Below are positions 36,567-64,000 of a stretch of 64,000 nucleotides of DNA, one piece after another. This stretch comes from a virus. Position 1 is the stretch's first letter. Every line of letters starts with the position of its first letter. The translations under genes and the position numbers were made by a program. Location of the stretch: the IMG/VR virus record IMGVR_UViG_3300023174_000064, positions 82,038-146,037 of that record; one strand, 5' to 3'. A model generated the notes under the pieces. That model searched no databases and was not told the DNA's origin. It was given only the letters and a program-made list of their open reading frames with translations.

Positions 36567-36571
36567 AAAAG

Positions 36572-36644
36572 TGCCCCCTGTAGGAATTGAACCTACGACC
36601 TATAGATTAAAAGTCTACTGCTCTACCAACTGAGCTAAGAGGGC
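36572..36644 (-). tRNA. tRNA-Lys(TTT)
   Basis: GTAGA-CTTTTAA-TCTAT; canonical D and T arms. Confidence 0.93.
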
Positions 36645-38429: not shown

Positions 38430-39487
38430 TATGAAAAGATCGTATTAATTTGTCGGTTCACTCGTATAAACGTAGTACACTTTGGAAGATCCTTGAGACG
38501 AGCCGCACCAACGTATGTGCAAGCAGAACGAACACCACCAAGAATTTGTTGCATCACACCAGCCACAGGGCCTGCTGGTTCAACAAACACTCGCTTTCCT
38601 TCTGCTGCACGATATGTTGCCACTCCTCCAGAACGCTTCTCCATTGCTGCTGCTGAGGACATCCCGTAGAACTCCTTGCCCTCGTCTGTCAGCTCGCCTG
38701 CTGATTCGTCTGTACCAGCAAACATTCCACCAATCATAACAAAATCTGCACCCGCTCCAAATGCCTTGGCTACATCACCAGGACAGGTACAACCACCGTC
38801 CGATATCACGTAACCACCCAATCCGTGTGCGGCATCAGCACACTCCATGATGCACGACAGTTGCGGATAGCCAACACCAGCAACCTTGCGAGTCGTGCAG
38901 ACTGATCCAGGACCAATACCAATCTTTACAATATTTGCTCCTGCAAGAATCAGTGCTTCAGTCATTTCTCGTGTCACAACATTTCCAGCAATCAGAATAT
39001 GATCCGGAAACAATCCACGAATAGTACGAACATAATTCACAAACTTTTCAGTGTACCCGTTTGCCACATCAATACAAATAAATTTGATGGACTTATGCTT
39101 GTTTAGAATTCGTTCAGCCTTTTGAATTTCTTCCATGCTGGAATTCATGTCACCCATGCCCATGGTGTACACCACATTAGGTGGCCAGTTCACATGATCC
39201 GTGATCCAACCGTACATAAAGTTGTCCCATTCGGCTTCTGTGTAATATTTGTGAATACCACACAGTGCATTATATTCTGCTAGGCTGTCAGCCATTTGAA
39301 ACGTACCAACTGTGTCCATGTTGGCAGCAACAATCGGCACACCAGTCCATTCTTGTTCCATATTGTCTGGAAGTTTAAACGTAAACTTGCGTGCCACATC
39401 AACTTTACTGCGACTGTCAAGATTACTGCGCTTTGGGCGAATCAGAACGTCGGCAAAATCCAGCTTGATATCATCTTCAATCTTCAT
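38429..39487 (-). CDS. guaC: GMP reductase
   Basis: [41 protein letters not shown] and FYGMSS motifs. Confidence 0.95.
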
Positions 39488-39532
39488 AATAACAATTTAC
39501 TCCAAAAAAGTCACACAGTCAAGTAAAAAACA

Positions 39533-49957: not shown

Positions 49958-49963
49958 AGAACT

Positions 49964-50081
49964 GGGGGATCCATGGGGAAATCAGAAGGGGGGTATGGGG
50001 GTACCCTCTCGTATTTAAAAATTTAGAAACTGGGTGCAACCGGGGGATCCATGGGGAAATCGATAGGGGGGTATGGGGGGG
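49964..50081. repeat. G-rich direct repeat, 2 copies (GGGGGATCCATGGGGAAATC...AGGGGGGTATGGGGG)
   Basis: Copies start at 49964 and 50042. Confidence 0.85.
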
Positions 50082-50389
50082 TCTGCGTTATTAGAGGGAT
50101 GGATGGTGTCTCGACCGGGTAGACTTGCTAGCCCCGGATCCTTCCAGATGGGACCCGCTCCGTGCAACTGTCCGGACAGGACCCCCCTCCCCACGCTGTA
50201 TGCTTCCACCGCCCCCGGTGTCAACCGAAATGTTCTACAATCTTAATCTTAATAATTCAAAAAACTTTGTTAAGATTGTGTTAAGAAAAAAATCTGCATC
50301 TACTTCGCATCTACCCTATTGACTCGACTTGGCGACTTTGATATAGTGCACACATACCCATTGGGCCACAGGCCCGGAAAGACACTACC

Positions 50390-50833
50390 ATGCAGATCAA
50401 GCACCTCGTCTCGTCCGTCTTCACCGCCCTGAACCGCAGCATCACGGGCTACCGCCCGTTCTCGGCTCGTGACTGCCGGGTGGTGGAGACCAGCCGTTAC
50501 TCGCACGCGACCGACCGGGCCACGGGCAGCCGGGTGTACATGAGCAAGCCCGCGTCGGTGTTCTCGGGCACCACCGTCACCACGGGTGAGGTGCAGCGTG
50601 GCGACTCGGGCATCAGCCTGACCGTGTGCGAGAATGGCCGTGTGGTGTGGCGGGGCTGGGTCAAGGTGGAGGACGGCAAGGCGATCGCAGCCACCGTGAA
50701 CTCGGCCTGCATGAAGGCACAGCCTCGCACGGGCCGCGAGATGGCCAACACGGAGTGGGCCGACTTGGTTCGTGTGGCCGACCATGTGAAGGCCGACGCC
50801 CAGTACACCGCCTCGCTGTTCGACAACATCTAA
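50390..50833 (+). CDS. Early hypothetical protein
   Basis: Promoter, leader hairpin, GC3-rich codons, terminator follows. Confidence 0.75.
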   Translation: MQIKHLVSSVFTALNRSITGYRPFSARDCRVVETSRYSHATDRATGSRVYMSKPASVFSGTTVTTGEVQRGDSGISLTVCENGRVVWRGWVKVEDGKAIAATVNSACMKAQPRTGREMANTEWADLVRVADHVKADAQYTASLFDNI

Positions 50834-50843
50834 TGGTGGTGCG

Positions 50844-50876
50844 GGGAGGGGGGATGTTCCCCCCTCCCTCTTTCTT
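50844..50876 (+). terminator. Intrinsic terminator-like hairpin
   Basis: GGGAGGGGGGA-TGT-TCCCCCCTCCC then TCTTTCTT. Confidence 0.7.
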
Positions 50877-51037
50877 CCAACCCAACCAACGCGCCCGCCC
50901 CCGCTCTTCCTGCCTGTGTGAGTTCACCACAGCGAGGAGCCGGGGTGGCCCGCGTTGATAGTATTTGGTTATCAGTCTCGCAAATAAACTTGGAAATAGG
51001 GGTTGACACAGCACTCCCAACTTGTTAGAATGAACGC

Positions 51038-51334
51038 ATGACCACCAACAACAACAACCTTCCGCCCGTCGTTCAGATCGTGCTGCCCGTCACCACCGTC
51101 CGCAACCTGCTGACCCTGCTGGAAGAGTGCAGCAGCACCTGGTCGGTTGACACTGAAACTGTGACCGCCATCCGCCGCGAGTACACCAGCGAGATGATCC
51201 GCCACGGCATCATCCGCCCGAGCGAGGTGAGCGTGATGACCCCGGACGAGGATCACTCGCACGAGGACGCCACGCAGAACGAGTACGATGCGGACAACGC
51301 GTGGCTGCGCTCGGCAGGCTGGGGGGAAATGTGA
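51038..51334 (+). CDS. Leaderless early protein
   Basis: ATG 6 nt after TAGAAT. Confidence 0.75.
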   Translation: MTTNNNNLPPVVQIVLPVTTVRNLLTLLEECSSTWSVDTETVTAIRREYTSEMIRHGIIRPSEVSVMTPDEDHSHEDATQNEYDADNAWLRSAGWGEM

Positions 51335-51429
51335 TGATGTTCCTGCTCGGCCTGATCTTGTCCGTGGTGTTTGTTATGGGCATCGTGGCCCTAGATCACC
51401 TCACCTCCGAGTGGGGAAGTGGAGGCTGA
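51334..51429 (+). CDS. Small membrane peptide (31 aa)
   Basis: TGATG coupling; MMFLLGLILSVVFVMGIVALD. Confidence 0.5.
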   Translation: MMFLLGLILSVVFVMGIVALDHLTSEWGSGG

Positions 51430-51627
51430 TCTCACAAGCCGAACCGGGATTCGTCCCCTGCCACCCTTCGGGGTGGCTAGGCTTGTTGATAGTACAAGCT
51501 GGGTGTTCCGCTTGCTATTGTACCACGGGGGACTGGGCGTGTCAAGAGGGAAAATACCAAAAAAGAAAAAAAAGATTCCCCGTTCCACCCCCTTGACAAG
51601 CCACCCCCGATCCTGTATACTACCCGC

Positions 51628-51819
51628 ATGAACACCACCAACCCCATCTACGACAATGGCGACGACTCCTTCGACTGGCACGAGGAGGAGGAGGCCATGA
51701 CTCCCGAGCGGATCGCGGAGTTGGAGGAGTGTGTACGCCTCCACAATGCCGAGCAAAACGGCGAGTTTGTGGACCCGTACGGGTTCCACGAGGATCCCAA
51801 CCAAATGTACGACGAATAA
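51628..51819 (+). CDS. Leaderless acidic early protein
   Basis: ATG 6 nt after TATACT. Confidence 0.75.
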   Translation: MNTTNPIYDNGDDSFDWHEEEEAMTPERIAELEECVRLHNAEQNGEFVDPYGFHEDPNQMYDE

Positions 51820-51892
51820 GGCTTGACAAGCCTGTTCGGATCGTGTACACTACTTGAAACCCAACCGGGCCACAGGCCCAAAGGAAACCACC

Positions 51893-52201
51893 ATGTTTGA
51901 CGCTGCCACCATCGACCTGCACAACCTGCCCCCGGAACTGGATCGCATGGTTCAGACCCTGCTGATCGTGTCCCGCGAGGGCTGCACCGATGTCGGAGAA
52001 CTGATGCGACGCCTGTACGGAAATGTCTCCGACTACACCCCGAAGCAGCAGGACGAGTGCTGCACCCAGTACGCTCACATCCTGATGAAGATGTACGCGT
52101 GCAAGTGGATCACGGCTGCGGATGCCGAGTTCGTGGCCTTGACCGCCGCAGGCGTTGAAGCCGCCGACACCATGCGGGAGTTCTACCGGAACAACCCGTA
52201 A
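51893..52201 (+). CDS. Early protein, winged-helix-like
   Basis: AAGGA RBS; C-terminal LTAAG wing motif. Confidence 0.7.
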   Translation: MFDAATIDLHNLPPELDRMVQTLLIVSREGCTDVGELMRRLYGNVSDYTPKQQDECCTQYAHILMKMYACKWITAADAEFVALTAAGVEAADTMREFYRNNP

Positions 52202-52347
52202 CCGAAACACTGTGGTGGTGTCCAAGTCCCCTGATCAGAGGAGGGTCTGGTCAGGGGCAACCACCCCCAAACATCCCAGTCAAACGAACCCAGGCTTCGC
52301 AGGAGCCACCCCGGCCTAAACCACCGGGGCGGGTTTGTTGATAGTAT

Positions 52348-52420
52348 TGTTAAGATTGCGTTAAATTAATTTTGTGTTAAGATTTGGTTAAATTAATTTT
52401 GTGTTAAGATTTAATAAAAT
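52348..52420. repeat. AT-rich GTTAAGATT/GTTAAATTAA iterations (related blocks at 50269-50286 and 55115-55197)
   Basis: About 27-bp tandem unit; 33 bp identical between 52337 and 55104. Confidence 0.85.
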
Positions 52421-52552
52421 ATTTTAGGAGTCCACTTACTATTGTACCTCCTGGTTTATTGTGTGTCAATCCGGAAAATGCCCGGAATTTAAAAATAAAA
52501 ATCTGTGCCTGACCCCCTTGACAGGCGGGGCCGGATCCGGTATACTACCCGC

Positions 52553-52783
52553 ATGTGCAACACCACCACCACCATCTCCCCCGCCGCCTCCAACCTCGTT
52601 ATCACCTGCGTGGAACCCGAAATTTTTTGTGCGGAGTGTGGCTGTGAAATCTCGCCAGAAAACTGGCACTGTGCGCCCCAGTTTTGGGTGTATCGTTTCG
52701 GGGGTGGTCGCCACGAATGCTTGGAGTGCGGGAACGGCATTGAACCCGACGATCACGAACCGGGATTCGACCCTCAAGATTGA
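52553..52783 (+). CDS. Leaderless zinc-finger-like early protein
   Basis: ATG 6 nt after TATACT; CAEC..CLEC. Confidence 0.7.
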   Translation: MCNTTTTISPAASNLVITCVEPEIFCAECGCEISPENWHCAPQFWVYRFGGGRHECLECGNGIEPDDHEPGFDPQD

Positions 52784-52876
52784 GGGTTTTCTTTTTGTTG
52801 ATAGTACGGGCCGATAACCAGAACCCCCTCCACCGGGACTGGTTCCCAATGGAGGGGGCTGCGTTTGTTACCGGAC

Positions 52877-53029
52877 TTACCACTCGGTGTGGTCGATCCA
52901 CGGTTCCCAGTCATCGTGGCCGGGGTCGGTTGGCTCCTCGTTGTATTCCGGCCAGTTCTCTTGGAGGAACAGATCCTCGTTGTAGTCCGGGTGCTCCATG
53001 TCGTCGTCGGGGGTGGTGGGGTTCGTCAT
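52877..53029 (-). CDS. Leaderless very acidic peptide (50 aa)
   Basis: Minus promoter 53064-53036; MTNPTTPDDDMEHPDYNEDLFLQENWPEYNEE.. Confidence 0.7.
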   Translation of the reverse strand: MTNPTTPDDDMEHPDYNEDLFLQENWPEYNEEPTDPGHDDWEPWIDHTEW

Positions 53030-53136
53030 GCCCGGATTGTAACCGAAACTCCCGGCCCTGTCAAGAGGGAAACCAAATAAATTATTTCTGTGGCTACCCT
53101 ATTGACACAAGCCGGTCAGGTTGATATACTGCCTGC

Positions 53137-53301
53137 ATGAACCTCACCACCCAACTGATCAAGTATGAAGACGGCGAACTCACGCACGAAGAAACCGTGT
53201 GCCTGTTTCAGGAACTGCTCGACACAGGCATGATCGACCACCTGCAAGGCTCGTACGCTCGCGTGGCTCTGCACCTGTACAACAACGGCGAAATCGCCTG
53301 A
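53137..53301 (+). CDS. Leaderless early protein (54 aa)
   Basis: IKYEDGEL..EETVCLFQELLDTG...LQGSY.R, a recurrent phage family motif. Confidence 0.75.
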   Translation: MNLTTQLIKYEDGELTHEETVCLFQELLDTGMIDHLQGSYARVALHLYNNGEIA

Positions 53302-53313
53302 AAGGAACCCCCC

Positions 53314-53520
53314 ATGATCGTGAACATCTGCATCCATGTGCCTGACCTCGACCCCAACACCCCGTTGGCGTGGAACACCACCGACCGGATCGAACAGGAA
53401 CTGACCCCCGCCCTGCAACGGCTGACCGGATTCGGTCGGTACGGCAATTGGAACTGGTGGATCAATGTGGAGAACGGCGAAACCCGGTATATGCCGGAAA
53501 ATGTTTCGGAACTGTCTTGA
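53314..53520 (+). CDS. Early hypothetical protein
   Basis: AAAGGA RBS; stop lies within the next TTGACA. Confidence 0.65.
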   Translation: MIVNICIHVPDLDPNTPLAWNTTDRIEQELTPALQRLTGFGRYGNWNWWINVENGETRYMPENVSELS

Positions 53521-53551
53521 CACCGCACCCCGAACCGGATAGAATCCAACC

Positions 53552-53692
53552 ATGACCACCTGCCCCCGTTGCAACCACCCGGAAACCCCTGACCACCTGT
53601 CCGCATGGGAAGGTCTGTGCCAAAACTGTTGGGGGCAACTGGCCGAAGCCACCATGACCGACGAAGATCGGGAGTGGTTGGAAAAAAACTGA
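53552..53692 (+). CDS. Leaderless zinc-finger-like peptide (46 aa)
   Basis: ATG 6 nt after TAGAAT; CPRC..CQNC. Confidence 0.65.
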   Translation: MTTCPRCNHPETPDHLSAWEGLCQNCWGQLAEATMTDEDREWLEKN

Positions 53693-53744
53693 AATGTTTC
53701 AGAAACCGCTTGACATCGCACCCCAAACCGGATAGAATACACCC

Positions 53745-53999
53745 ATGACCACCAAGACCTACAACGGATACCGCAATGCAGCCACCTACCGCACCGCCCT
53801 GTGGCTCACCAACGAGGAGCCTCTGTACCGCACCATGGTTGAACACTTCCGCGAGGAGGAGATCACCACGGCGAACGCCCGGTTCTTCTGCAACCTGCTG
53901 TGGCCGTGTGCGGAGAACCCGGACGGCGACGAACTCGCTGATGTGTACTGGCCGGACATCGTTCGCGTCATCCAAGACTGCACCGACATCGAAAACTGA
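53745..53999 (+). CDS. Leaderless early protein (YNG..N..T...LW..N family)
   Basis: ATG 6 nt after TAGAAT; recurrent phage motif. Confidence 0.75.
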   Translation: MTTKTYNGYRNAATYRTALWLTNEEPLYRTMVEHFREEEITTANARFFCNLLWPCAENPDGDELADVYWPDIVRVIQDCTDIEN

Positions 54000-54041
54000 A
54001 CTTTTTTACTAACCCCAAACCCCAAGGAAGGGAACCTCACT

Positions 54042-54284
54042 ATGCCACGAGTCACCGCCAATCTGAAGTCTTTCACTCCCCGTCACGGCAAGATCCGGAT
54101 CACTTTCGCCCTGATGTTTATGAAGGGCAAGGGCTACGAGTACTCGGGTCGCGGCAAGATTGCCTCCTCCCGTAACAAGTGGCGGCCCGAGCGTGCCTAC
54201 TTCTTCACGAACCGTGCCACCGGACAGCGGCTGACCCTGACCACCTCTGATCTGCGTCAGGCGTTTGCCACCGGAACCGTCTAA
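54042..54284 (+). CDS. Basic early protein
   Basis: AAGGAAGG RBS. Confidence 0.65.
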   Translation: MPRVTANLKSFTPRHGKIRITFALMFMKGKGYEYSGRGKIASSRNKWRPERAYFFTNRATGQRLTLTTSDLRQAFATGTV

Positions 54285-54591
54285 CAAAGCCTGTGCCACG
54301 GGCTAAAGTGGCCGGGTTGGCCGTTTGCCTGCACCAAAAACGGCCCAGTCGCCCGTCTTGAATACTGGTAAAGGTTTGGAATCACCTACTTGAGGACTTC
54401 CCGCTTTTCCCCTTGAGTGTTATCAAGGGGTTTTTTCATTTCCGGAAAGTTGATAGTATTTAATTTAACCCAGACACTGTATTATATCACAGATTCCGGA
54501 ACCTGTCAAGTGGAAAACCGCCCGGAATAAAAAGATTTATTTCTGCGGTATAGGGCTTGACAAACCAACCCGGATGGTGTAGAATGACCAC

Positions 54592-54912
54592 ATGGAAACC
54601 ACCAACACCATCCCGGCCTGTCCGAACCCCAACCTGTACGAGTTCATCATCCGCGTGCGTGACCGTCGTCGCAAGACGGGCTATCGGGTTGTGGTGACCG
54701 AACAGCGAGAGTTCCCGGATGCCGACACCGCAAAGATTTACGCAGAGAAGATGGAAGGCACAGACGGTCGCTACATTGTGGAGTTTCATCAGTTTTGGGT
54801 GCTGAAGCAGAACTTCATGGCCTCACAGCCCGGGTTCCCGGCGTACTTTTGGGAGGCGTACAACACCCCGTACTGCTGCTCTCCTGCATCCGAACTGTAC
54901 TGGACGATGTGA
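54592..54912 (+). CDS. Leaderless early protein
   Basis: ATG 6 nt after TAGAAT; C-terminal NTPYCCSPASELYW motif. Confidence 0.75.
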   Translation: METTNTIPACPNPNLYEFIIRVRDRRRKTGYRVVVTEQREFPDADTAKIYAEKMEGTDGRYIVEFHQFWVLKQNFMASQPGFPAYFWEAYNTPYCCSPASELYWTM

Positions 54913-55647
54913 ACCAAGGGTGGCCGTACTCCCGGATTCCGGAATCCTAACGGCCTGCGTTGTACTGTGTAAGAGTCAACAGTACCGGGTGTGGAACCAC
55001 CTGTCCCAAGGTTCTAGGGAATGGGAACGCCCTATCGGAATCTCCCCGCCTTCTATTGGGTTCTTGAGCGTATCAAGAACCCTTTTTTATTATCGGACCA
55101 GGAGTTGATAGTATTGTTAAGATTGCGTTAAATTAAGATTGTGTTAAGTTTCGGTTAAGATTGGATTAATTTAAGTTTGTGTTAAGATTTGATTAACCGG
55201 AAAGTGGTCAGCCCGCCCTCCCAGCCCGATCTAGGGTAACACAGCAGGCGGAACCTGTCAACCCTGAAACCTCCCAGATTCTCAAAATTAATTTATTGGG
55301 ATTGCAGAATACTATCAACCCGCCCAGATCATCCCCGTACCTGTAGTGTACCACACTCTGCCTCCTCTGTCAACCCCCAAAATACCCGGAATGTAACAAA
55401 TAATTCTCGAGAAAATTTCAGATATTGGAGGATTCTGCTTGACTGGAAGAATCCGGGGTATGGGACGGCTGGGATGTGTGTGTTTGCGAGATAACCCGGA
55501 CATTCTCAAATATATTTCAGAATCTTACCCCACTTCCCCCCATTTCAACCCACTTTGAAATCGCCGATCAGCGTCGAGCATTATCAGACTCAAAAAATCC
55601 GCATTTCACCCCTTGACACCACGCCCCGGATCGGTTAGACTACCCCC

Positions 55648-55929
55648 ATGACCACCTTCACCTCATCCCGTTGGCGAAACCACCCGACCTACCTGTGTGC
55701 GTTGGAGGTGGAGATGGCGACCATCCCCGGCCCTGCGTTCGGTGCGTTCTTGGACTCCAATCCCGACCACCGCGACCACCATGAGGACACGGGCGAGTAC
55801 ACCATCTCGCCTGCGGCAGTCCGTGAGTGGTTCACCCTGAACCGTGCCGACCTGTTTGGCCCCGGTGACACCGATCTTGTGGACTGGACTGCCGTTGCCG
55901 CCTACATGGACACTTGGAACTGGTTCTGA
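55648..55929 (+). CDS. Leaderless early protein
   Basis: ATG 6 nt after TAGACT. Confidence 0.72.
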   Translation: MTTFTSSRWRNHPTYLCALEVEMATIPGPAFGAFLDSNPDHRDHHEDTGEYTISPAAVREWFTLNRADLFGPGDTDLVDWTAVAAYMDTWNWF

Positions 55930-55985
55930 AAAAAATCTGTTTCTTCCTCTTGACAAACACCCCAACACCTGATAGGATACACCCC

Positions 55986-56375
55986 ATGACCACCGTGACC
56001 TCCACCGCGCTCACCGCTCGCACCTCTGACCACCGATGGGATGATGACCTTCAAGCCGCCTACGCCGCAGGGAATGCCGCAGCGAACGCGATTGAGGTGG
56101 TTCCCATGACCGTGGTGGGCCGTGACCGCACCTACTGGGTGGAAGGCGGCGTGTGCGGGTTCGCTCGCGTCGAGGTTCGGCCTCGCACTTCTGCATGGGC
56201 CAAGTGGCTGCTGGCCACCGGGTGGCGTTCATCGGACTACTTCAAGTGCGTCACGCTGAACATTGACGGCTTCGGCCAGTCCATGCAGCGGAAGGAAGCG
56301 TTCGCCCAAGCGTTTGTTGACCACCTGACCCGGTTGGGCTACCCCGGCGTGTCGTACACCGCCACCATCGACTGA
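55986..56375 (+). CDS. Leaderless early protein
   Basis: ATG 7 nt after TAGGAT; GVCGFA.V...QSMQRKEAFA.AF motif. Confidence 0.75.
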   Translation: MTTVTSTALTARTSDHRWDDDLQAAYAAGNAAANAIEVVPMTVVGRDRTYWVEGGVCGFARVEVRPRTSAWAKWLLATGWRSSDYFKCVTLNIDGFGQSMQRKEAFAQAFVDHLTRLGYPGVSYTATID

Positions 56376-56427
56376 AAAAATCCAAAAAGTTCTTGACCAC
56401 CCCACCCCTGAAAGGTACAATCCTCCC

Positions 56428-56727
56428 ATGAGAATCACCGCCAACCGATTGGAAACCCGTCTTGCGTTCATCAACCGTATGCTGGGCCGTCCTGCCACCC
56501 CGTACACCTACACCGCCAAGACTGTGGCCAATGTCGGCTGCTGGTACTTGAGTGCCAGCGAGTACGGGTACGAGGTGCTGGAGATTGTGACGGAGTCGGG
56601 TGGTGTCCAAGTGGTGTACCCGGCCATGCGTCCCAGCATCCTGTACGCCGTGCTGGGCGGGTTCTTGGACGGCATCAAGGCTCGTGGAACGGTGGATGAA
56701 GCCTACGCCACCACCTGTTCCATCTGA
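56428..56727 (+). CDS. Leaderless early protein
   Basis: ATG 6 nt after TACAAT. Confidence 0.75.
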   Translation: MRITANRLETRLAFINRMLGRPATPYTYTAKTVANVGCWYLSASEYGYEVLEIVTESGGVQVVYPAMRPSILYAVLGGFLDGIKARGTVDEAYATTCSI

Positions 56728-56781
56728 AATAAATCCATTTTCCCTCTTGACACCACGCCCAACCCCGGATACAATCCATCC

Positions 56782-57045
56782 ATGACCTTGACCACCACCA
56801 TCCAGTACTTGCGAAACAACGAAATCATCACTTCGGAAACCCGCAGTTTCCGGGGCAGGTGGATCGGAAACATTGAACGCAAGGCGATGCACCACGCCCA
56901 AGGTGACAGGCTGTTTGTGTACTGCAACCGGATCAACATCCTGTGTGAACTGCCGCACGGTGGCGTGAGCAACACCACATGGATTCTGACCCACCCGGTT
57001 CGACCGCTTGCAGAACTTGAATCAAAGTGTTTGGAAACTGCTTGA
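56782..57045 (+). CDS. Leaderless early protein
   Basis: ATG 6 nt after TACAAT; stop in next TTGACA. Confidence 0.7.
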   Translation: MTLTTTIQYLRNNEIITSETRSFRGRWIGNIERKAMHHAQGDRLFVYCNRINILCELPHGGVSNTTWILTHPVRPLAELESKCLETA

Positions 57046-57076
57046 CACCCCAACCCCTGAAAGGTAAACTACACCC

Positions 57077-57403
57077 ATGAAATGCCCCACCAACCTGCTG
57101 CCTGAAAACCTGCCGCAAGACTTCGTGCAAGCGGCTGCCGTTTGCATCACCATCCAAGCGTTCGACAACATCCCGTGCCATGTGCAAGCGATCTACGACG
57201 GCCTGTACGGGGATGCGGTTGACCCGGATGCCGCCAAGCGGGAGTTGAGCCGGATGCTGGCCCGGATGGTTCGTGTGGGCCTGATCACCATGCCCAGCCA
57301 GTCCGGTACGGTGATCCTGACCGATAAGGGCGACGAAGCCGCCACCACATTCCGCGAGTTGTGGGTGGGTTCCGGCATCCTCGATCTGTCCGACCTGTGC
57401 TGA
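57077..57403 (+). CDS. Leaderless winged-helix-like early protein
   Basis: ATG 6 nt after TAAACT; GLI...ILTDKG. Confidence 0.7.
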   Translation: MKCPTNLLPENLPQDFVQAAAVCITIQAFDNIPCHVQAIYDGLYGDAVDPDAAKRELSRMLARMVRVGLITMPSQSGTVILTDKGDEAATTFRELWVGSGILDLSDLC

Positions 57404-57523
57404 AAAAATCTGAAAAAGGGACTTGACATGATCGACTTTCTGTGTTACACTACCGCTGTGATGATTGCCACTCCGTTGGTGGCAACCTTCGTGACCTACT
57501 ACAGCCATGAGGACTTCTGACCC

Positions 57524-57730
57524 ATGACCACTCACACCATCATCGTGTTTCCCGACGGGGAAACTTGGAACACGGCAGATGGCTCTGCCATCATGGTCAT
57601 CACCGACCAGCAGTTCCGTGATCTGATTGAAGGCCGCATCAACGCAGGAGACATTCCGGCGATTGCGTCCATCTCGCTGGCAGACTTCACACCCGGCCCC
57701 CGCAACGGCTCACAGGAGAACACCAAGTGA
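57524..57730 (+). CDS. Early hypothetical protein
   Basis: GAGGA RBS. Confidence 0.65.
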   Translation: MTTHTIIVFPDGETWNTADGSAIMVITDQQFRDLIEGRINAGDIPAIASISLADFTPGPRNGSQENTK

Positions 57731-58005
57731 ACCACACACGGCCACCCATCCTGCCCGCAGCACGCAGTCGGATACTGCCTGTGCGGTGGTGCATGGAAGT
57801 GCTGTGGTGGGCTGGCTGGATTCACGAACGCACCATGACCATTGGTGGTTATCGGACTTACATCTGCCTCGACCCGGCAGGCCGGGTGAACTACCTGACC
57901 ACCTACGGGCTGCGACAGGCTGCATACGAGAACTACAGCAAGTACTGGCAAGAAAATCACTACCTCTTGACAACACCTCCAACACAAGGTACAATCCACA
58001 CATGA
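57727..58005 (+). CDS. Early hypothetical protein
   Basis: GTGA coupling. Confidence 0.5.
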   Translation: MNHTRPPILPAARSRILPVRWCMEVLWWAGWIHERTMTIGGYRTYICLDPAGRVNYLTTYGLRQAAYENYSKYWQENHYLLTTPPTQGTIHT

Positions 58006-58154
58006 TGAATCCGCAAGGCAAATGGTGCATCTACGATCCGCGACTCGACGGCTTTATTGCCGAATACTCCACCATGCTGGAGGCCCGGTCGTGGCTCGAC
58101 ATGACGCAGCCACCTGATACTGAACTGACTGTTGTGTTCGTGCCCGGTAACTAA
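58002..58154 (+). CDS. Leaderless early peptide (50 aa)
   Basis: ATG 6 nt after TACAAT. Confidence 0.65.
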   Translation: MMNPQGKWCIYDPRLDGFIAEYSTMLEARSWLDMTQPPDTELTVVFVPGN

Positions 58155-58175
58155 CCCCAAACAGAAAGAACCCCG

Positions 58176-58457
58176 ATGCTGCCTGAAGAACCTGACATGA
58201 CCATGAGCGAACTTCACGAGATGCTGGCCCAAGAACTGCCGCCTGCCAAGATTGAGAGGGCGGTGGAGGACTTGATTGCCAAAGGCATGGTGGAAACGCT
58301 GTGGGATGCTGACGGCAATGTGTCCTACCGCCTGACTGCCATCGGTCGTGTGGTGGGCAAGGCGATCAACGACCAGTACCAGTACGACACCGAACAGCAC
58401 GACGGCTGGCTGGGTGACGGCTGGGATGACGAGGGCTGGGATGACGGAGAAATCTGA
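58176..58457 (+). CDS. Winged-helix-like protein with acidic tail
   Basis: LIAKGMVE...YRLTAIG. Confidence 0.65.
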   Translation: MLPEEPDMTMSELHEMLAQELPPAKIERAVEDLIAKGMVETLWDADGNVSYRLTAIGRVVGKAINDQYQYDTEQHDGWLGDGWDDEGWDDGEI

Positions 58458-58512
58458 AATAGTTTCAGATTCACTATTGACACACGCTGCAACACCGGAT
58501 ACAATCCACACC

Positions 58513-58785
58513 ATGAAGAACCCCCAATTCAACGACGAGTTCGATCACACCAACGATGACGGGTACTACCAGTTTCAAGACTCGCAGGACATCCGCGACG
58601 AGTGGCTGCGTGAGGAGGAAGAGTACTGGAGCGAGGGCACACTCGACCCGGCAGACTCCGGCGAGTACGACCCGGTGGACGAGTCCGATAACTCTGAAGC
58701 CACCGATGAGTGGAGTGACGAGGACATGGACGAGACTCCCATCGGCCTTGAGTACGACGGGTACAACGATCCCGATAACTTCTGA
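58513..58785 (+). CDS. Leaderless extremely acidic protein
   Basis: ATG 7 nt after TACAAT; D/E dominated. Confidence 0.72.
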   Translation: MKNPQFNDEFDHTNDDGYYQFQDSQDIRDEWLREEEEYWSEGTLDPADSGEYDPVDESDNSEATDEWSDEDMDETPIGLEYDGYNDPDNF

Positions 58786-58902
58786 ACATTGCGGCTCTCA
58801 CTTGCAGGACTACGCTCTCCTTCGGGAAGCCTGCTTGAGAGTTGTGAAAAAAAGTTTGGTTTCCCTCTTGACACCACACACCCAATCGGGTACAATACAC
58901 AC

Positions 58903-59076
58903 ATGAACAAGCCTGTCACCATCACCCTGACCAACAAGCAAGCACACCTGATGCTGGACTACTTGAGCGATCTTCACTTCGATGGAGAAGCCCAAGTGTA
59001 CAACGAGGATGTGCCTGACCTGCGAACCATTGTGGACACCTTGGCTGACACCATCGAACAAACGGAGAACGCATGA
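58903..59076 (+). CDS. Leaderless early protein
   Basis: ATG 6 nt after TACAAT. Confidence 0.7.
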   Translation: MNKPVTITLTNKQAHLMLDYLSDLHFDGEAQVYNEDVPDLRTIVDTLADTIEQTENA

Positions 59077-59291
59077 CAGACGAAGCAGACAACGACGAAG
59101 GCAACCCCAGCACCGCGAAGCGAGCCACCTACCATATCATCATCGAAGCCAGCGATGTGGAGGACACCGAGTTTCAGGTGGAGGAAGTGAACGACCTGAC
59201 CGAACAACTGGGCCGGATGCTTTCATTCAACGGCACGGTGTGGCTGGACGAGGTGGAGTACGACGAGGACACCAACGAGGAGGAAGTCTGA
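59073..59291 (+). CDS. Acidic early protein
   Basis: ATGA coupling. Confidence 0.65.
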   Translation: MTDEADNDEGNPSTAKRATYHIIIEASDVEDTEFQVEEVNDLTEQLGRMLSFNGTVWLDEVEYDEDTNEEEV

Positions 59292-59560
59292 TGGCAACGC
59301 TGCGAGCCTGTTACTTGAACGATCCCAACGCGATCCGTGACTTCATGGTGCGCCATGTGGTGTTCCGTGTGAAGTTCCGCAAGAAGGATGGCACGATCCG
59401 TAGCCTGCTGGGCACGGTGGAGCCGGGGTTTCTTGGTGTGAACACACCAAACGGCACAGGCAATCCGAACTATGACGAAGCCATCCCTGTCTACGACATG
59501 GAGAGGCAAGCATGGCGTGCGTTCAAGCCGGACAATGTGTTGGAACTTCACTCTGTCTGA
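59291..59560 (+). CDS. WYL-like/SH3 (DUF2693-type) protein
   Basis: VKFRKKDGTIRSLLGT...VYDMERQAWRAFK. Confidence 0.78.
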   Translation: MATLRACYLNDPNAIRDFMVRHVVFRVKFRKKDGTIRSLLGTVEPGFLGVNTPNGTGNPNYDEAIPVYDMERQAWRAFKPDNVLELHSV

Positions 59561-59630
59561 AATAATTTCAGAAATCACTTGACACTCACCCCAAACTGTG
59601 GTACAATCCACACAACGAAAGGACACACAC

Positions 59631-59957
59631 ATGACGAACGACCAATGGAAACTGTGGGAAGACAGCATGGCACTTGCACCTGAAATCACGACGGCAATGT
59701 TCAATGCCCGCGTGAAGGAGATGACGCAGGCCGAAGTGATTGACCTGTCTCGTTGCCTGCTGACCGTGACTCGCTGCATTGAGAGTCTCGCTGCTGGCCG
59801 CATCACGGAGAAGCGTGATGTGGAGGACTTGGCTGACCTCACCATGAGCATGATGAGCGGAATGTACGGCAGGCTGATGGGGTTGGCAAGGGCGTATGAC
59901 ACGCTCATCACCAAGCAGGTGATGCTGGAGGCTGAACTGGCCTCGACGGGGAAGTGA
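59631..59957 (+). CDS. Early hypothetical protein
   Basis: Promoter plus AAAGGA RBS. Confidence 0.7.
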   Translation: MTNDQWKLWEDSMALAPEITTAMFNARVKEMTQAEVIDLSRCLLTVTRCIESLAAGRITEKRDVEDLADLTMSMMSGMYGRLMGLARAYDTLITKQVMLEAELASTGK

Positions 59958-60026
59958 TACTGGTTTGGGGTTGCCTGCCGCCGGATGAAACACTCCGGCG
60001 GTAGGTTTATGGAGGAAGCACACTCA

Positions 60027-60230
60027 ATGTACATCGTTCTCGCTGTGGCAATCCTTGCCACCATCATCGTTCTTGGCATCCAGTTTGTTCTGTTCGTGAT
60101 CGACCACGAACGCCGCGAACAACTCCGCGACCTGTACGAAGCCAAGCAGGACAAGTTCCTGAATGTGTACACCAAGTCCGATAACAACAGCAAGTACCGC
60201 AAGACCAAGCAGACCAAGCGAAAGAAATAA
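60027..60230 (+). CDS. Small single-TM protein
   Basis: GGAGG RBS; N-terminal hydrophobic helix. Confidence 0.6.
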   Translation: MYIVLAVAILATIIVLGIQFVLFVIDHERREQLRDLYEAKQDKFLNVYTKSDNNSKYRKTKQTKRKK

Positions 60231-60293
60231 TTTCAGAAGTGGGCTTGACACACACCACACCTTGTGGTACAATCCCAGCACGAAGGAAACACC

Positions 60294-60890
60294 ATGACAA
60301 CCCCCAAGTTCAACATCGTCCAAGTGTACGCCAGTCTGAACGCCAAGCCCGGAGGCTCGCAGCACACTCGTCTGCTGTGTGTGGAGATGGGCATTGTGTT
60401 TGTGACTGTCACCTCGCCTGCCACAGACGGTGGTTGGACTTCACAGTACCTGTGGTGCTGGCCCCGTGTGAACGGTCTGTCTCAAACATGGCTGCTGGGT
60501 GACAACATCGGCGGCAAGGACGGCAAGCCGTGGACACGCAACGATCCCAACACAGCGGTGGACGGCATGGGCATTCCATACGCTCACACCGATGCGGTGG
60601 CACACATCACCGCGCTGGCAGCAGCCGGGTATGTGGATTGGAGCAAGGCTGCCTACAGCGGCAGACCGATTCCCAATCTGTTCAGCGATGCCACCCTGAT
60701 GCCACAGTCTTACGCCAAGGTGACTCCACCCGGCAAGCCCACGCAACGACAGGCTTCCAACGATCCGCTGCAAGTGCAGGGACAAAGCCCGGTTCACGAA
60801 ATCGCTGATCTCATCAACTCGTTGGGGATTCAGACTGTGTTTCCCACCACCGAAGATATGAACGCCATCAGCAAGATGAACCCGCTATGA
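60294..60890 (+). CDS. Early hypothetical protein
   Basis: Promoter plus AAGGA RBS. Confidence 0.72.
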   Translation: MTTPKFNIVQVYASLNAKPGGSQHTRLLCVEMGIVFVTVTSPATDGGWTSQYLWCWPRVNGLSQTWLLGDNIGGKDGKPWTRNDPNTAVDGMGIPYAHTDAVAHITALAAAGYVDWSKAAYSGRPIPNLFSDATLMPQSYAKVTPPGKPTQRQASNDPLQVQGQSPVHEIADLINSLGIQTVFPTTEDMNAISKMNPL

Positions 60891-61222
60891 AGAATCCAAA
60901 CATGACATCACAGGAATACATGGAACGGTTGCGTGAGGAAGGTGCAGCAGGCATCGGGTGGTTCAACCACCGTGGCGTGCGGTACACTCTGAAAACCAGC
61001 AGGCGAAATACCATCCCGGTGCAGACCGCACTTCACATTCTGTTGCTGGAAGGATGGACGGATGTGGAGTACTACACCGCACTTCGGGTGTACCGTGCCC
61101 GGAACCCGGATGGTGAATGGGTCGATATGTCGGTGGACACCGTGCGGTGGACTGCACTTCACATTGTGTACTGTGGAATGAAAAAGACGAAAAGTTCATT
61201 TGACAACCCGCAACCTGTGTGA
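60887..61222 (+). CDS. Early hypothetical protein
   Basis: ATGA coupling. Confidence 0.6.
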   Translation: MKNPNMTSQEYMERLREEGAAGIGWFNHRGVRYTLKTSRRNTIPVQTALHILLLEGWTDVEYYTALRVYRARNPDGEWVDMSVDTVRWTALHIVYCGMKKTKSSFDNPQPV

Positions 61223-61234
61223 TACAATACCACC

Positions 61235-61435
61235 ATGCCAAAGCGACACATCGACCAATTCGACATTGAAGCAGAGCGTGAAGGTGCAGCCGTGCGTCTG
61301 TCCGGCCAGCAGGTGTGCAAGCCGTTTGGCTATGGCCGTGGTATCACCAAGCAGCGTCGAATGCAGAAGGACGGCGCAGCCAAGGTGGAGTGCCGTACCA
61401 TCAAGCAATCGTTCGGAAAGTTTTCCTATGCGTAA
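61235..61435 (+). CDS. Leaderless basic early protein
   Basis: ATG 6 nt after TACAAT. Confidence 0.65.
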   Translation: MPKRHIDQFDIEAEREGAAVRLSGQQVCKPFGYGRGITKQRRMQKDGAAKVECRTIKQSFGKFSYA

Positions 61436-61640
61436 GTGCATGAAGTGTGACTGCGAGATTCCTGCTGTTCGGTTGGAAGCCCTGCCGTACACCACGACCT
61501 GTGTGAAGTGCAGCACCACCAAGGCATATGTGGGGTTCATGTCATTTGCCCACAAGACCGCCCCCGACATTGTGATGGTCAACCCTGATGACAGGGAGAA
61601 CTTGCGTCGGGCTGTGGCGATCCATGAAAGGCGACGATAA
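61428..61640 (+). CDS. TraR/DksA C4-type zinc finger protein
   Basis: CMKCDCEIPAVRLEALPYTTTCVKC. Confidence 0.8.
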   Translation: MRKCMKCDCEIPAVRLEALPYTTTCVKCSTTKAYVGFMSFAHKTAPDIVMVNPDDRENLRRAVAIHERRR

Positions 61641-61930
61641 TGTGCAACACATGGCGTGAACGATACGGCCCAGCAGTAGACTCCGATCAGACTGTGGAGT
61701 GTGTGATGTGTGGTTACACACTACATGGCGATGATCCACCAATCGGCGTGGTGTGTCTTGATTGCTGGAATGGTGGTCAGATTCTCCGTGACCGCGTGGT
61801 GTGCAACGGCTGTGCGTCCGATAACGGATGGCACGGCGACAAGACCACCACCGATACACACCCTGATGGATTCACCTGCGATGAGTGTGGCGAAACTTTC
61901 CCTTGCGAAAATCTTTCGGAAAACACTTGA
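61640..61930 (+). CDS. Cys-rich early protein
   Basis: TAATG coupling; four CxxC motifs. Confidence 0.6.
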   Translation: MCNTWRERYGPAVDSDQTVECVMCGYTLHGDDPPIGVVCLDCWNGGQILRDRVVCNGCASDNGWHGDKTTTDTHPDGFTCDECGETFPCENLSENT

Positions 61931-61961
61931 CACCCACCACTCCCTGTGGTACAATACACAC

Positions 61962-62171
61962 ATGAGCAACGACGATCTCGACCACCTGTGCAAGATGCTG
62001 CAAAACTCCCACGACACCGCCTCCAAGGTGACTGGCATGGATGACACCATGTTCTTGCAGGCGTTGGATGGCATCAAGTGGCTGCGTGCCAAGTTGAAGC
62101 AGTACCAGCGAGCAGAGGCAGCAGCCGCAATGGATCGGCTGTCACAGTTTGACGAGGAGAACGGCCTGTGA
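61962..62171 (+). CDS. Leaderless early protein
   Basis: ATG 6 nt after TACAAT. Confidence 0.7.
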   Translation: MSNDDLDHLCKMLQNSHDTASKVTGMDDTMFLQALDGIKWLRAKLKQYQRAEAAAAMDRLSQFDEENGL

Positions 62172-62419
62172 ACAACCCATACAACGAACTACCACACCCG
62201 GTGTTCCTGCGATATGTGGCACAGAACGACTACATGATCGACGGGTACTACCTGCCGGAAGGTGTGCGACTGAACGCAGCGGCGGATGAACTGGAGTCTC
62301 TACAGATTCGGTACGACGAACTGTGGAAGGCACACCAGCGGCTGGCACAGACCTGCAAGGAAGCAGAGGAGCGTGTTGACACTCTCCTAGAGCGTGTGAA
62401 AGAACGAGTACGCCCATGA
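62168..62419 (+). CDS. Early coiled-coil protein
   Basis: GTGA coupling. Confidence 0.6.
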   Translation: MNNPYNELPHPVFLRYVAQNDYMIDGYYLPEGVRLNAAADELESLQIRYDELWKAHQRLAQTCKEAEERVDTLLERVKERVRP

Positions 62420-62748
62420 GTGACTACAAGCAGGCTGAACACTATGCAGGCATGAGCATCGAACGATGGGAAAGCCTGATGAAGAAGGTGGACGCAAACA
62501 CCGCAAGTGATGCAGACTTGACACCGGGCGAGCGTGGTGCTGGCTGGCACTTCTGCTCGCTGGGCTGGGATGGTCTGCTGATCTCTCCCATCGACTTGGA
62601 GTACAAGCATTGCGGATGCCCGGACAAGCAGCACCACAAGCGGGAGGCTTCATACTATGAACGGCTGCTGAAGGTAAAGCAATGGATCAAAGCAGAACCA
62701 CGAGACTACCCCCAAGACTTTCAAGAAAAGTTTGGAAATAAGGATTGA
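62416..62748 (+). CDS. Early hypothetical protein
   Basis: ATGA coupling; GWHFC..WDGLLI motif. Confidence 0.65.
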   Translation: MSDYKQAEHYAGMSIERWESLMKKVDANTASDADLTPGERGAGWHFCSLGWDGLLISPIDLEYKHCGCPDKQHHKREASYYERLLKVKQWIKAEPRDYPQDFQEKFGNKD

Positions 62749-62779
62749 CAACATCCACAACCTGTGGTACAATACACAC

Positions 62780-63124
62780 ATGACCAAGACCAAAGCCAAG
62801 ATCGTTTCGCACAAGCCGAAGTTCCTGCCACTCAACCGTCCTGTCAAGGGCACGGTGGGCCTGCAAGTTCACTTCGACGGCTACGCTCTGCCCAACTTTG
62901 GCGAGAGCGACACGGAGGTAGAAGTTCTCCGTGACATCCGTGAGGAGTTGGGCAAGCCGTTCAACAAGCGGATTGTGTACGCAGGCGATGGTGGTTCGAT
63001 GGACTACTTCTACATGGAGTGGGAAGGCAAGCCCAAGGACATGGCTCGTCTTGCCAAGTGGTTCCGTGAGGGCGACCAGTATCCTTTGCTCGCCATTCAC
63101 ACCGTGGAAATCTTCAAGATTTGA
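62780..63124 (+). CDS. Leaderless early protein
   Basis: ATG 6 nt after TACAAT. Confidence 0.72.
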   Translation: MTKTKAKIVSHKPKFLPLNRPVKGTVGLQVHFDGYALPNFGESDTEVEVLRDIREELGKPFNKRIVYAGDGGSMDYFYMEWEGKPKDMARLAKWFREGDQYPLLAIHTVEIFKI

Positions 63125-63161
63125 TCTTGACACACACCCAAACATCAGGTACAATACACAC

Positions 63162-63593
63162 ATGACCAAGACCAACAACAACCGTGTGCGAGCCAAGGCC
63201 CGCAAGTCCCCGAAGTCTCTCCGTGATCTGAACACGGCCAAGATGAATGCCGTGATGTACAAGTTCATCCCGGCTGTCTACGATCTCCATGTGGAGTTCA
63301 CACTCACGGGCGATCAGGACTTGAATGATCCGGTGGACTTCCTGCCACGCAACCTGTCTCGACTGGAGATGGGTAGCGGTTACTGCATGATGACGGGAAT
63401 GCGTGACTTTCACTTCCGTGGCACAGAGCAGGAGATGAAGAACATCATGCGCCAGTTCTGTTCCAGCCCGTTCAAGGTGTACAAGTTCTATGTGTACCCG
63501 GACGGAGATCACTTCAACGAGTTCAACGACAGCGTGCGGCAGAAGGCGTTTGCCCGTGCAGAGCGTCGGGCCAAGACCAAGAGGAGCAAGTGA
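63162..63593 (+). CDS. Leaderless early protein
   Basis: ATG 6 nt after TACAAT. Confidence 0.72.
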   Translation: MTKTNNNRVRAKARKSPKSLRDLNTAKMNAVMYKFIPAVYDLHVEFTLTGDQDLNDPVDFLPRNLSRLEMGSGYCMMTGMRDFHFRGTEQEMKNIMRQFCSSPFKVYKFYVYPDGDHFNEFNDSVRQKAFARAERRAKTKRSK

Positions 63594-63892
63594 TGGACGG
63601 CATCATCAGCACATTCAAGTCTCGCTACGGCGACACACGCACCGTGACCCAACTGGACGAGGAGACTCTGATCCTTGAAGGCACAACCATGTACACCCGT
63701 GGAAGTGATGGTGATGACGGGCAACTCATGGTGGACTTTGAGGGTGGCCCGTTCCTGACCAAAGGCATGGACATCCGGGTACACTTGGGATGCCCGATGG
63801 ATGGTGTCATCAAGACCATGCGGTTCCTGCCCAGCGACCGACCCAACCACGCCAAGGTTGAGGTGAAGATCAAGCCCGGTCAGCAGCGTTGA
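63593..63892 (+). CDS. Early hypothetical protein
   Basis: TGATG coupling; SRYGD.R...VDFEGGPFL motif. Confidence 0.7.
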   Translation: MDGIISTFKSRYGDTRTVTQLDEETLILEGTTMYTRGSDGDDGQLMVDFEGGPFLTKGMDIRVHLGCPMDGVIKTMRFLPSDRPNHAKVEVKIKPGQQR

Positions 63893-63958
63893 AACTGCCC
63901 CGGCCACTTTGACGGCTGTGTGCGTACAACCGTTCGTGTTGACTTATTCATCGGCCTT

Positions 63959-63991
63959 GCCCCCTCCGTTATGGGGGCTTTTTTGTTTTTT
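63959..63991 (+). terminator. Intrinsic terminator
   Basis: GCCCCC...GGGGGC followed by TTTTTTG. Confidence 0.75.
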
Positions 63992-64000
63992 GTTGATAGT

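Follow-up and report, generated by a model that had tools for sequence, protein, structure and literature searches.

How is a phage gene transcribed and translated when its promoter ends only 6 or 7 nucleotides (nt) before its ATG? The question is raised by a tandem array of promoter-plus-gene cassettes found in a window of 64 kb, the whole stretch of DNA analyzed here, which makes up the last part of the 146,037-bp virus record IMGVR_UViG_3300023174_000064 of the IMG/VR database (G000 in what follows). The record is classed there as linear, with an estimated completeness of 80%; positions are those of the window unless another contig is named. By its gene content, the source is an uncultured T4-like myovirus. 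Its large terminase (TerL) is of the T4 type, with 55-56% identity to Synechococcus myovirus terminases; genes were also detected for gp23, a prohead protease, a scaffold, gp32 and UvsY, for baseplate proteins resembling gp6 and gp53, for a DnaB-like helicase and for a protein similar to RecA. The array lies in a GC-rich island of this genome. We read it, with a probability of about 0.72, as a hyperplastic early region built of promoter-plus-gene cassettes, the first genes of which would mostly be leaderless and would be expressed with the polymerase and the tRNAs of the host.

Scanning for the pattern TTGACN-N17-TANNNT yielded 24 plus-strand matches between positions 50319 and 63155, the number given in a preliminary description of this DNA. 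The -35 hexamer is TTGACA in 22 of them, the -10 hexamer TACAAT in 11, and 10 carry the TGn motif of extended -10 promoters. An independent sigma-70 scan of the interval 50000-64000 returned 40 sites, as compared to 6.3 +/- 2.6 in shuffled sequences. The -10 box is separated from an ATG by 6 nt at 17 promoters and by 7 nt at two others, the peak that had been predicted for this distance; the open reading frames (ORFs) opened in this way span 46-143 codons. From the frequency of ATG in the island, 0.84 such coincidences would be expected among 24 promoters by chance (P(>=19) = 7e-24). All 19 leaderless starts of the array are ATG. Furthermore, in 20 out of 20 leaderless junctions (the 19 of the array and that of a 768-aa gene, at position 659 of the genome), C occupies position -1 and A position +1. 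A C(-1)/A(+1) step at the usual start distance is a preference of sigma-70 polymerases. The preliminary description had counted 20 plus-strand starts at 6-7 nt. The figure holds for 19; at the remaining promoter, 57423, the codon found at 6 nt is a GTG that opens only 20 codons and relatives lack a start there, hence this promoter is counted as leadered. Leaders 14-36 nt long and containing AAGGA-like sites are found at promoters 50319, 51823, 59579 and 60245. The single minus-strand case that had been listed proved real: promoter 53064 has an ATG at 6 nt, opening a 50-aa ORF with a GC content at third codon positions (GC3) of 0.86, which is conserved in one relative.

The sequences upstream from the -35 boxes are also alike. 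Over 22 nt, the A+T content is 55-77% at 23 of the 24 promoters and 50% at promoter 50319, against 44% in the island, bearing out the A-rich, UP-like tracts noted earlier. The tract often reads cTGAAAwaatttcaGAAA, which resembles an UP element, and in 7-8 cases the TGA of cTGAAA, some 20 nt before the -35 box, is the stop codon of the preceding gene. Stop codons embedded in the next TTGACA, said previously to be frequent, do occur (53517, 57042, 61927 and 62745), but at 4 of 24 promoters they are less common than the cTGAAA stops. Terminator-like sites are not enriched in the region (16 found versus 13.5 expected), and a single weak one is present between 55.1 and 63.9 kb. Folding the segment from -65 to +1 of the 24 modules gave a mean z-score of -0.47, with 3 of the 24 below -2.

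The 5' ends of the leaderless genes have a distinctive composition. The first 21 nt after the ATG contain 78% A+C and 11% G, and the first 36 nt of the genes have a minimum free energy of -1.6 kcal/mol, versus -7.8 kcal/mol in internal windows taken in frame (P = 1e-12). The A+C content exceeds that found at those island starts that are preceded by a Shine-Dalgarno (SD) site (P = 0.002). Leaderless translation is known to be raised by CA repeats after the start codon and lowered by structure or by added 5' distance (reviewed in PMC9031893), and the sequence features of leaderless genes given there (AUG, no SD, low structure, CA-rich downstream region) are those found here. Some 16 genes of the island occupy internal positions in their units. 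SD-like motifs, AAGGA or GGAG, precede 12 of 16 internal genes, as opposed to 4 of 19 leaderless genes, and the bulk and late genes of the phage likewise have SD-like leaders. The two modes of initiation thus appear to be used side by side, which argues against the earlier suggestion that the array evades or exploits a shut-off of SD-dependent translation, as does a gene that is leaderless in one phage but SD-led in a sister (see below). Three other parts of the earlier interpretation, namely host-type promoters with their predicted +1 on the A of the ATG, modular units and promoters acting as recombination joints, agree with our analysis.

The ORFs of the island are real genes. They show GC3 values of 0.65-0.91 together with a low GC content at second codon positions, their orthologues in sister contigs are of nearly equal length with dN/dS ratios of 0.12-0.52 (pooled pN 0.052, pS 0.169), and the distal 8 kb of the array is nearly all coding. 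Blastp gave no matches among the island proteins, which are thus mutually unrelated; this rules out paralogy between cassettes and implies that the similarity of the promoters is not a product of gene duplication. Almost none of the proteins belongs to a known family in Pfam and PHROGs, the exceptions being DUF7417, DUF7249 and a few unnamed PHROGs. The best represented is the 129-aa protein encoded at 55986-56375. It has 132 homologues, the close members of which measure 125-132 aa and all start with MTT. Invariant GVCGFA and FGQSMQRKEA motifs are seen across this family of at least 132 phage proteins. Structure prediction for the 129-aa protein was confident (pLDDT 89), but no match in the PDB was retrieved by Foldseek at E <= 0.001, and tblastn found none in phages. 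Some small proteins (58513-58785, 59073-59291 and 51628-51819) are very acidic and rich in D, E and aromatic residues; by composition alone, they are candidates for inhibitors of the DNA-mimic type.

The geometry of the promoters is conserved in related contigs. Contig G006 shares the junction between late genes and island together with the 5 kb of island DNA next to it, and six contigs from other samples, found through homologues of the 129-aa protein (L122, L123, L124, L125, L126 and L128), carry 4-17 kb of it. A distant relative, G007 (L119), whose flanking gene is just 35% identical, has a complete 12-kb island of 0.51-0.63 GC between AT-rich flanks, with nine promoters placed 6-7 nt upstream of ATGAMCACCACC-type starts. 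Most island promoters of G006, G007, L122, L125 and L128 have their ATG at 6-7 nt. Among 22 orthologous promoter pairs, 18 are identical in the lengths of both spacer and discriminator; sequence identity in the pairs is 98% in the -35 box and 94% in the -10 box, and 81% and 83% in spacer and discriminator, respectively. Since the lengths are kept while the sequences between the boxes drift, these data point to selection on promoter geometry. Two island proteins used as queries in IMG/VR retrieved no relatives. TerL has many relatives, but the five longest of their contigs stop short of the island.

Comparison with these relatives also revealed exchange of cassettes, the feature that the preliminary description had proposed to look for at promoter boundaries. 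Relative to G006, whose flanks are 86-98% identical, three indels or replacements occur within 5 kb. An extra cassette of 193 bp in the window, containing gene 53552-53692, corresponds to a single hybrid promoter in G006, as in a clean promoter-to-promoter crossover. A second extra segment, of 428 bp (52393-52820), comprises a divergent promoter pair, a gene and a hairpin, and the third difference is the replacement of one promoter-plus-gene segment. In the comparison with L125, alignment blocks end between -21 and +44 of the promoter modules at most breakpoints, each of the two contigs has extra cassettes, and protein identity along the array is mosaic, ranging from 51 to 100%. Genes and promoters are also re-paired: a gene 54% identical to its counterpart has a promoter that matches at 35 of 36 positions, while one that is 91% identical has a different promoter. 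The mode of initiation can change in the process. The 93-aa gene 58176-58457 is SD-led in the window and leaderless, behind the same promoter (57967), in L125; conversely, the acidic 90-aa gene 58513-58785 is leaderless in the window and has an 18-nt AAAGGA leader in L122. Gain, loss and re-pairing of cassettes have thus occurred, and the breakpoints fall within the promoter module, consistent with the idea that the repeated promoters act as recombination joints.

The array is set apart from the remaining genome by composition. GC content is about 37% in most of the genome, but 52-60% in the window between 50.0 and 64.0 kb (positions 50000-64000) and in bases 1-4200 of the record; at 50.0 kb the value rises sharply from 0.43 to 0.58. 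In L125, the homologue of the last gene of the window is followed by a leaderless AAA_5 gene, a 66-aa gene and homologues, 99% and 97% identical, of genes with which the record begins. As L125 bridges them, the two contig ends of the record are neighbours, about 1.3 kb apart, and the whole island is one block of about 19 kb, 55% GC, straddling both ends and holding some 40 small, presumably early, genes. The contig ends at window positions 63990-64000 with GTTGATAGT; at the corresponding place L125 has the GTTGATAGTA motif described below. A G-rich repeat of about 45 nt (GGGGGATCCATGGGGAAATC..GGGGGGTATGGGGG) is present twice at 49960-50085, on the border between late genes and island, in a region that is 82% conserved in G006. 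The phage has no close relative in culture. Blastn searches of GenBank phages with the island and its flank gave no match, and an Rfam search of the island returned nothing real. No psbA, hli or WhiB gene was found on the contig. Among GTDB genomes, TerL has only one match, of 54%, in a Polynucleobacter metagenome-assembled genome, which is uninformative for the host; the large contigs that carry distant homologues proved to be those of other phages.

The same boundary separates two patterns of codon use. GC3 is 0.74 in island genes versus 0.26 in 95 bulk genes. Seven tRNA genes (Gly-UCC, Glu-UUC, Ile-UAU, Asn-GUU, Arg-UCU, Leu-UAA and Lys-UUU) lie on the minus strand at 30841-36644, and the codons that they read (ATA, TTA, AGA, AAA, GGA, GAA and AAY) are common in the bulk genes and rare in the island. 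Per 1000 codons, island and bulk have 0.7 and 23.4 ATA, 0.2 and 28.1 TTA, 2.0 and 15.8 AGA, and 4.3 and 49.0 AAA, respectively. The partition recurs in G007 (GC3 0.71 versus 0.33, with a similar tRNA set). As the island is nearly devoid of these codons, its proteins could be made with host tRNAs alone. A separate observation in G007 concerns two tRNA genes, for tRNA-Lys and tRNA-Leu, which lie within its island (about 57650-58560, minus strand) and begin some 3 nt downstream from where consensus promoters are predicted to start transcription; such tRNAs would therefore be made nearly without a 5' leader. The late genes and the tRNAs of T4 were reportedly dealt with by Cowe and Sharp in 1991. 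Early and late phage genes are known to differ in synonymous codon use (Mioduser et al. 2017, PMC5683454). The present case resembles that situation in that the tRNAs of the phage fit the codons used in its later genes; it differs in that the contrast is extreme, confined to one block and coupled to another mode of initiation.

Together, these results suggest how the array might function. It would be read first, by host RNA polymerase bearing the primary sigma factor. Each cassette would open with the A/T-rich, UP-like tract, followed by TTGACA, 17 bp and TAnnnT, often with TGn, and the preferred transcription start, an A preceded by C at a distance of 7 nt from the -10 box, would coincide with the A of the ATG. 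Because of this coincidence, the first gene of most units would be made from a leaderless 5'-AUG mRNA, the first 35 nt or so of which, being CA-rich, poor in G and unstructured, should favour leaderless initiation. The later genes of a unit would make use of the SD-like AAGGA/GGAG sites or of overlapping stop and start codons. Since RNA reading through from one unit into the next would carry the next AUG internally and without an SD site, we infer that first genes are translated mainly from the transcripts of their own promoters, to which their output would thereby be tied. The module extending from about -21 to +44, that is, from the -35 box to about the third codon, would provide the shared homology for recombination. 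Titration of RNA polymerase by the array, raised in the preliminary description, is a possible additional role. We also entertain, as a tentative extension that we would not expect to hold in full, a "host-only" early regime in which AUG-started mRNAs lack codons for phage tRNAs, leaderlessness takes the place of terminators in keeping first genes silent on read-through RNA, and the module from the -35 box to the third codon acts as a universal adaptor; if so, any ORF recombined behind the module would be expressed at once, with no need to evolve a ribosome-binding site (RBS).

Several points weigh against the reading of the array as early cassettes with leaderless first genes. The position of the start derives from general sigma-70 rules and the early timing from analogy with T4-type phages. 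At 7 of the 19 ATGs an in-frame GTG or TTG occurs further upstream, though within the previous gene or the promoter, and the weak SD-like runs of some promoter spacers (4 of 19) could permit some internal initiation of genes supposed to be insulated. The GC content of the island may come partly from ancestry and not from translational selection. Finally, cassette-precise breakpoints would be expected also if the indels arose otherwise, because every cassette opens with a similar promoter. In one alternative, the promoters are genuine but transcription begins a few bases off the A of the ATG, or mostly at upstream promoters, giving mRNAs with short or long leaders, and translation is SD-independent in another way, such as scanning by 70S ribosomes or binding of S1 to the CA-rich, unstructured region. 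Start site choice can indeed vary by 1-2 nt; with so few terminators between units read-through RNAs must exist; CA-rich, unstructured starts help leadered mRNAs too; and in sister phages two of the genes have orthologues that are SD-led. We nonetheless judge this alternative unlikely in view of the C(-1)/A(+1) step, which at 20 of 20 junctions stands at a distance of exactly 7 or 8 nt from the -10 box, of a discriminator held at 6-7 nt across relatives despite sequence drift, and of the improbability of the spacing itself.

It might be argued instead that the array is mainly a DNA element, a sink for RNA polymerase or a device controlling replication or packaging, with ORFs that are incidental. 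The great density of consensus promoters, five of them on the minus strand without an ORF, would fit such a role, as would the iteron-like AT-rich blocks and the repeated GTTGATAGTA of the proximal 5 kb. The strong GC3 periodicity, the purifying selection and the conserved lengths of the ORFs, and a distal 8 kb given over almost entirely to coding sequence make this very improbable. Equally hard to sustain is the notion that transcription of the array depends on a sigma factor or polymerase modified or encoded by the phage, as in T4 middle promoters and sigma appropriation: TTGACA-17-TAnnnT promoters with UP-like tracts need no private element, and AsiA was not found on the contig, in a search that had no positive control. 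What speaks for a modified polymerase is a 387-aa protein encoded nearby on the minus strand (36696-37859), with a weak ART-PolyVal match (E 0.002, below the cut-off). Were it a real ADP-ribosyltransferase, it could act on RNA polymerase at UP-dependent early promoters in the manner of T4 Alt and ModA. A foreign origin of the GC-rich block, whether through chimeric assembly, a mobile element or recent capture from a high-GC, leaderless-prone donor, is suggested by the jump in GC at 50.0 kb, by contig ends that fall within the block, and by the combination of high GC and leaderless genes, reminiscent of Actinobacteria and Deinococcus. Here the opposing evidence leaves almost no room. The same junction and island recur on independent contigs from other samples (G006, L122 and L128), the G007 island has AT-rich phage DNA on both sides, and L125 joins the ends of the record; an assembly chimera is excluded on these grounds. 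Moreover, leaderless starts occur in the AT-rich parts of the genome as well, codons for the phage tRNAs are avoided in two diverged phages, and no integrase or transposase family was recognized among 36 island proteins.

The organization favoured here, leaderless early cassettes exchanged at their promoters, has partial counterparts in known systems. Leaderless genes with a TANNNT -10 box beside the start codon are common in Actinobacteria and Deinococcus-Thermus, and single cases are known in phages, such as lambda cI transcribed from PRM. The genes of the array share with them the -10 box 6-7 nt before the ATG, the lack of an SD site and the CA-rich, unstructured downstream region; they differ in forming a dense tandem array, with complete -35 boxes and UP-like elements, in a T4-like phage. 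The nearest parallel is provided by the promoter-early stem-loops (PeSLs) of the T4-type phages RB49/phi1, T4/PST and KVP40/nt-1 (Arbiol et al. 2010, PMC2839356; Comeau et al. 2014, PMC4122927). In both cases a hyperplastic region of a T4-like phage contains many small ORFans, a consensus sigma-70 promoter is preceded by an A/T-rich tract that often holds the stop codon of the preceding gene, and recombination between repeated units adds, deletes and replaces genes. PeSLs, however, have an SD site before the start codon and carry a terminating G/C stem-loop, whereas the array has its ATG at the predicted +1 with few SD-like sites (4 of 19), no consistent stem-loop and rare terminators, and it occupies a region compositionally distinct from the remaining genome. 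Another mark of PeSLs is the excision of mini-circles by recombination between units. To judge from its sequence, then, the array represents the shuffling cassettes already known from T4-type phages, in a leaderless form. The host takeover regions of T4, T5 and SPO1 (PMC2988021) likewise combine many strong promoters for host RNA polymerase, A-rich upstream tracts and small, uncharacterized genes that are read first; their transcripts are leadered, and none is known to have been described as a GC-shifted island. An integron-type array, with an integrase gene and attC-type recombination sites around promoterless cassettes, was considered and rejected, since no integrase family was found among the 36 island proteins, every cassette is equipped with a promoter and no repeat other than the promoter module is shared.

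Host takeover is known above all from T4-type phages, the textbook example, in which early genes have been described as SD-led. A systematic and conserved change to leaderless early mRNAs, within a block that also keeps to codons readable by the host, would mean, if confirmed, that the early and late programmes of a phage can be kept apart in translation and not only in transcription, and it would offer a simple account of how new ORFs become expressible, with the promoter supplying the start context. In practical terms, gene callers that expect an RBS will misplace starts in such regions, and the array represents a compact natural set of promoter and 5'-end modules for tests of leaderless translation.

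Leaderless starts are not confined to the array. In the AT-rich part of the genome, three promoters of sigma-70 type abut their ATG. One of these, on the minus strand (promoter 39522-39494, TTGACT-17-TAAATT), lies 6 nt before a predicted leaderless gene of the IMPDH/GMP-reductase family (39487-38429, 352 aa; unit 38429-39522). The Pfam alignment of the protein begins at residue 9, and G006 has the same promoter layout. T4-type late promoters, TATAAATA, number 18 in the genome, and at 5 of the 18 the ATG of a long ORF follows after 5-6 nt, suggesting that late genes may also be leaderless; these five promoters are at G000 positions 4228, 8552, 104018, 119909 and 131994, the last three corresponding to window positions 21981, 37872 and 49957. 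The host presumably translates leaderless mRNAs well. At the far end of the island, the predicted leaderless gene for the 768-aa protein occupies G000 694-3000 (L025), downstream from the promoter junction at 659. A CobT-like signal from the ESM Atlas (score 0.95) is a lead only for this protein. The AAA_5 gene of L125 (9525-10703), which falls in the stretch missing from the record and is likewise predicted to be leaderless, encodes a CobS/MoxR-like protein. The cultured cyanomyoviruses S-PM2, S-SRM01 and S-CREM1 have 3, 0 and 3 leaderless junctions per genome, respectively, against 20 here, and the exact promoter-plus-ATG pattern was found in IMG/VR on 21 further contigs, where the leaderless junctions number only 1-3 at each locus.

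The array can be followed unit by unit, each unit extending from its promoter to the end of its last gene on the plus strand, except where stated. It opens with promoter 50319-50347 (TTGACT/TATAGT), a leader of about 36 nt, a gene for 147 aa (50390-50833) and a terminator at 50843-50869. Promoters 51003-51031 and 51593-51621 stand 6 nt before leaderless genes 51038-51334 (98 aa) and 51628-51819 (63 aa, acidic); the latter unit is absent from G006. Promoter 51823-51851 has a leader of about 35 nt with AAAGGAAA before gene 51893-52201 (102 aa), and promoter 52518-52546 is followed at 6 nt by a leaderless gene for a Cys-rich protein of 76 aa (52553-52783), in the cassette 52393-52820 that G006 lacks. 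The minus-strand promoter (53064-53036, 6 nt) serves leaderless gene 53029-52877 (50 aa; unit 52877-53064). The next unit joins a leaderless gene (53137-53301, 54 aa), 6 nt from promoter 53102-53130, to an SD-led one (53314-53520, 68 aa), the TGA of which lies in the TTGACA of promoter 53517-53545. The latter, again at 6 nt, precedes leaderless gene 53552-53692 (46 aa), in the 193-bp cassette that is missing, with one hybrid promoter in its place, from both G006 and L125. Promoter 53710-53738 is followed at 6 nt by leaderless gene 53745-53999 (84 aa) and then by gene 54042-54284 (80 aa).

Six units with one leaderless gene each come next, the distance being 6 nt in all but the third, where it is 7 nt: promoter 54557-54585 with gene 54592-54912 (106 aa), 55613-55641 with 55648-55929 (93 aa), 55950-55978 with 55986-56375 (the 129-aa family), 56393-56421 with 56428-56727 (99 aa), 56747-56775 with 56782-57045 (87 aa, stop codon in the next TTGACA) and 57042-57070 with 57077-57403 (108 aa). 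Promoter 57423-57451, best read as leadered, precedes genes 57524-57730 (68 aa) and 57727-58005 (92 aa). Within the end of the latter, promoter 57967-57995 (6 nt) begins a unit of leaderless gene 58002-58154 (50 aa) and gene 58176-58457 (93 aa); promoter 58477-58505 (7 nt) then serves the leaderless gene for the very acidic 90-aa protein (58513-58785). Three genes follow promoter 58868-58896, the first leaderless at 6 nt (58903-59076, 57 aa) and the others at 59073-59291 (72 aa) and 59288-59560 (90 aa). Two successive promoters have short leaders, of 17 nt with AAAGGA (59579-59607; genes 59631-59957, 108 aa, and 59985-60230, 81 aa and membrane-like) and of 14 nt with AAGGAAA (60245-60273; genes 60294-60890, 198 aa, and 60887-61222, 111 aa). 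All four remaining units begin with a leaderless gene at 6 nt. These are promoter 61200-61228 with genes 61235-61435 (66 aa) and 61640-61930 (96 aa, Cys-rich); promoter 61927-61955 with genes 61962-62171 (69 aa), 62168-62419 (83 aa) and 62416-62748 (110 aa); promoter 62745-62773 with gene 62780-63124 (114 aa); and promoter 63127-63155 with genes 63162-63593 (143 aa) and 63590-63892 (100 aa), closed by a terminator at 63959-63978, with which the unit ends.

Additional elements are interspersed with the proximal cassettes. The motif GTTGATAGTA is present in seven exact copies, at 50954, 51485, 52337, 52797, 54449 and 55104 on the plus strand and at 55319 on the minus strand, all of them within the proximal 5 kb and, as a rule, directly after a hairpin. 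Iteron-like AT-rich blocks of GTTAAGATT/GTTAAATTAATTTT repeats interrupt the GC-rich DNA at 50258-50290, 52346-52420 and 55113-55200, and one of the cassette indels relative to G006 starts within such a block. The five minus-strand consensus promoters without an ORF behind them (51545, 52469, 54509, 55261 and 55373), one of which is a perfect TTGACA-17-TATAAT, point away from the plus-strand promoters and into these modules of hairpin, GTTGATAGTA and AT-rich sequence; the five promoters are conserved in G006.

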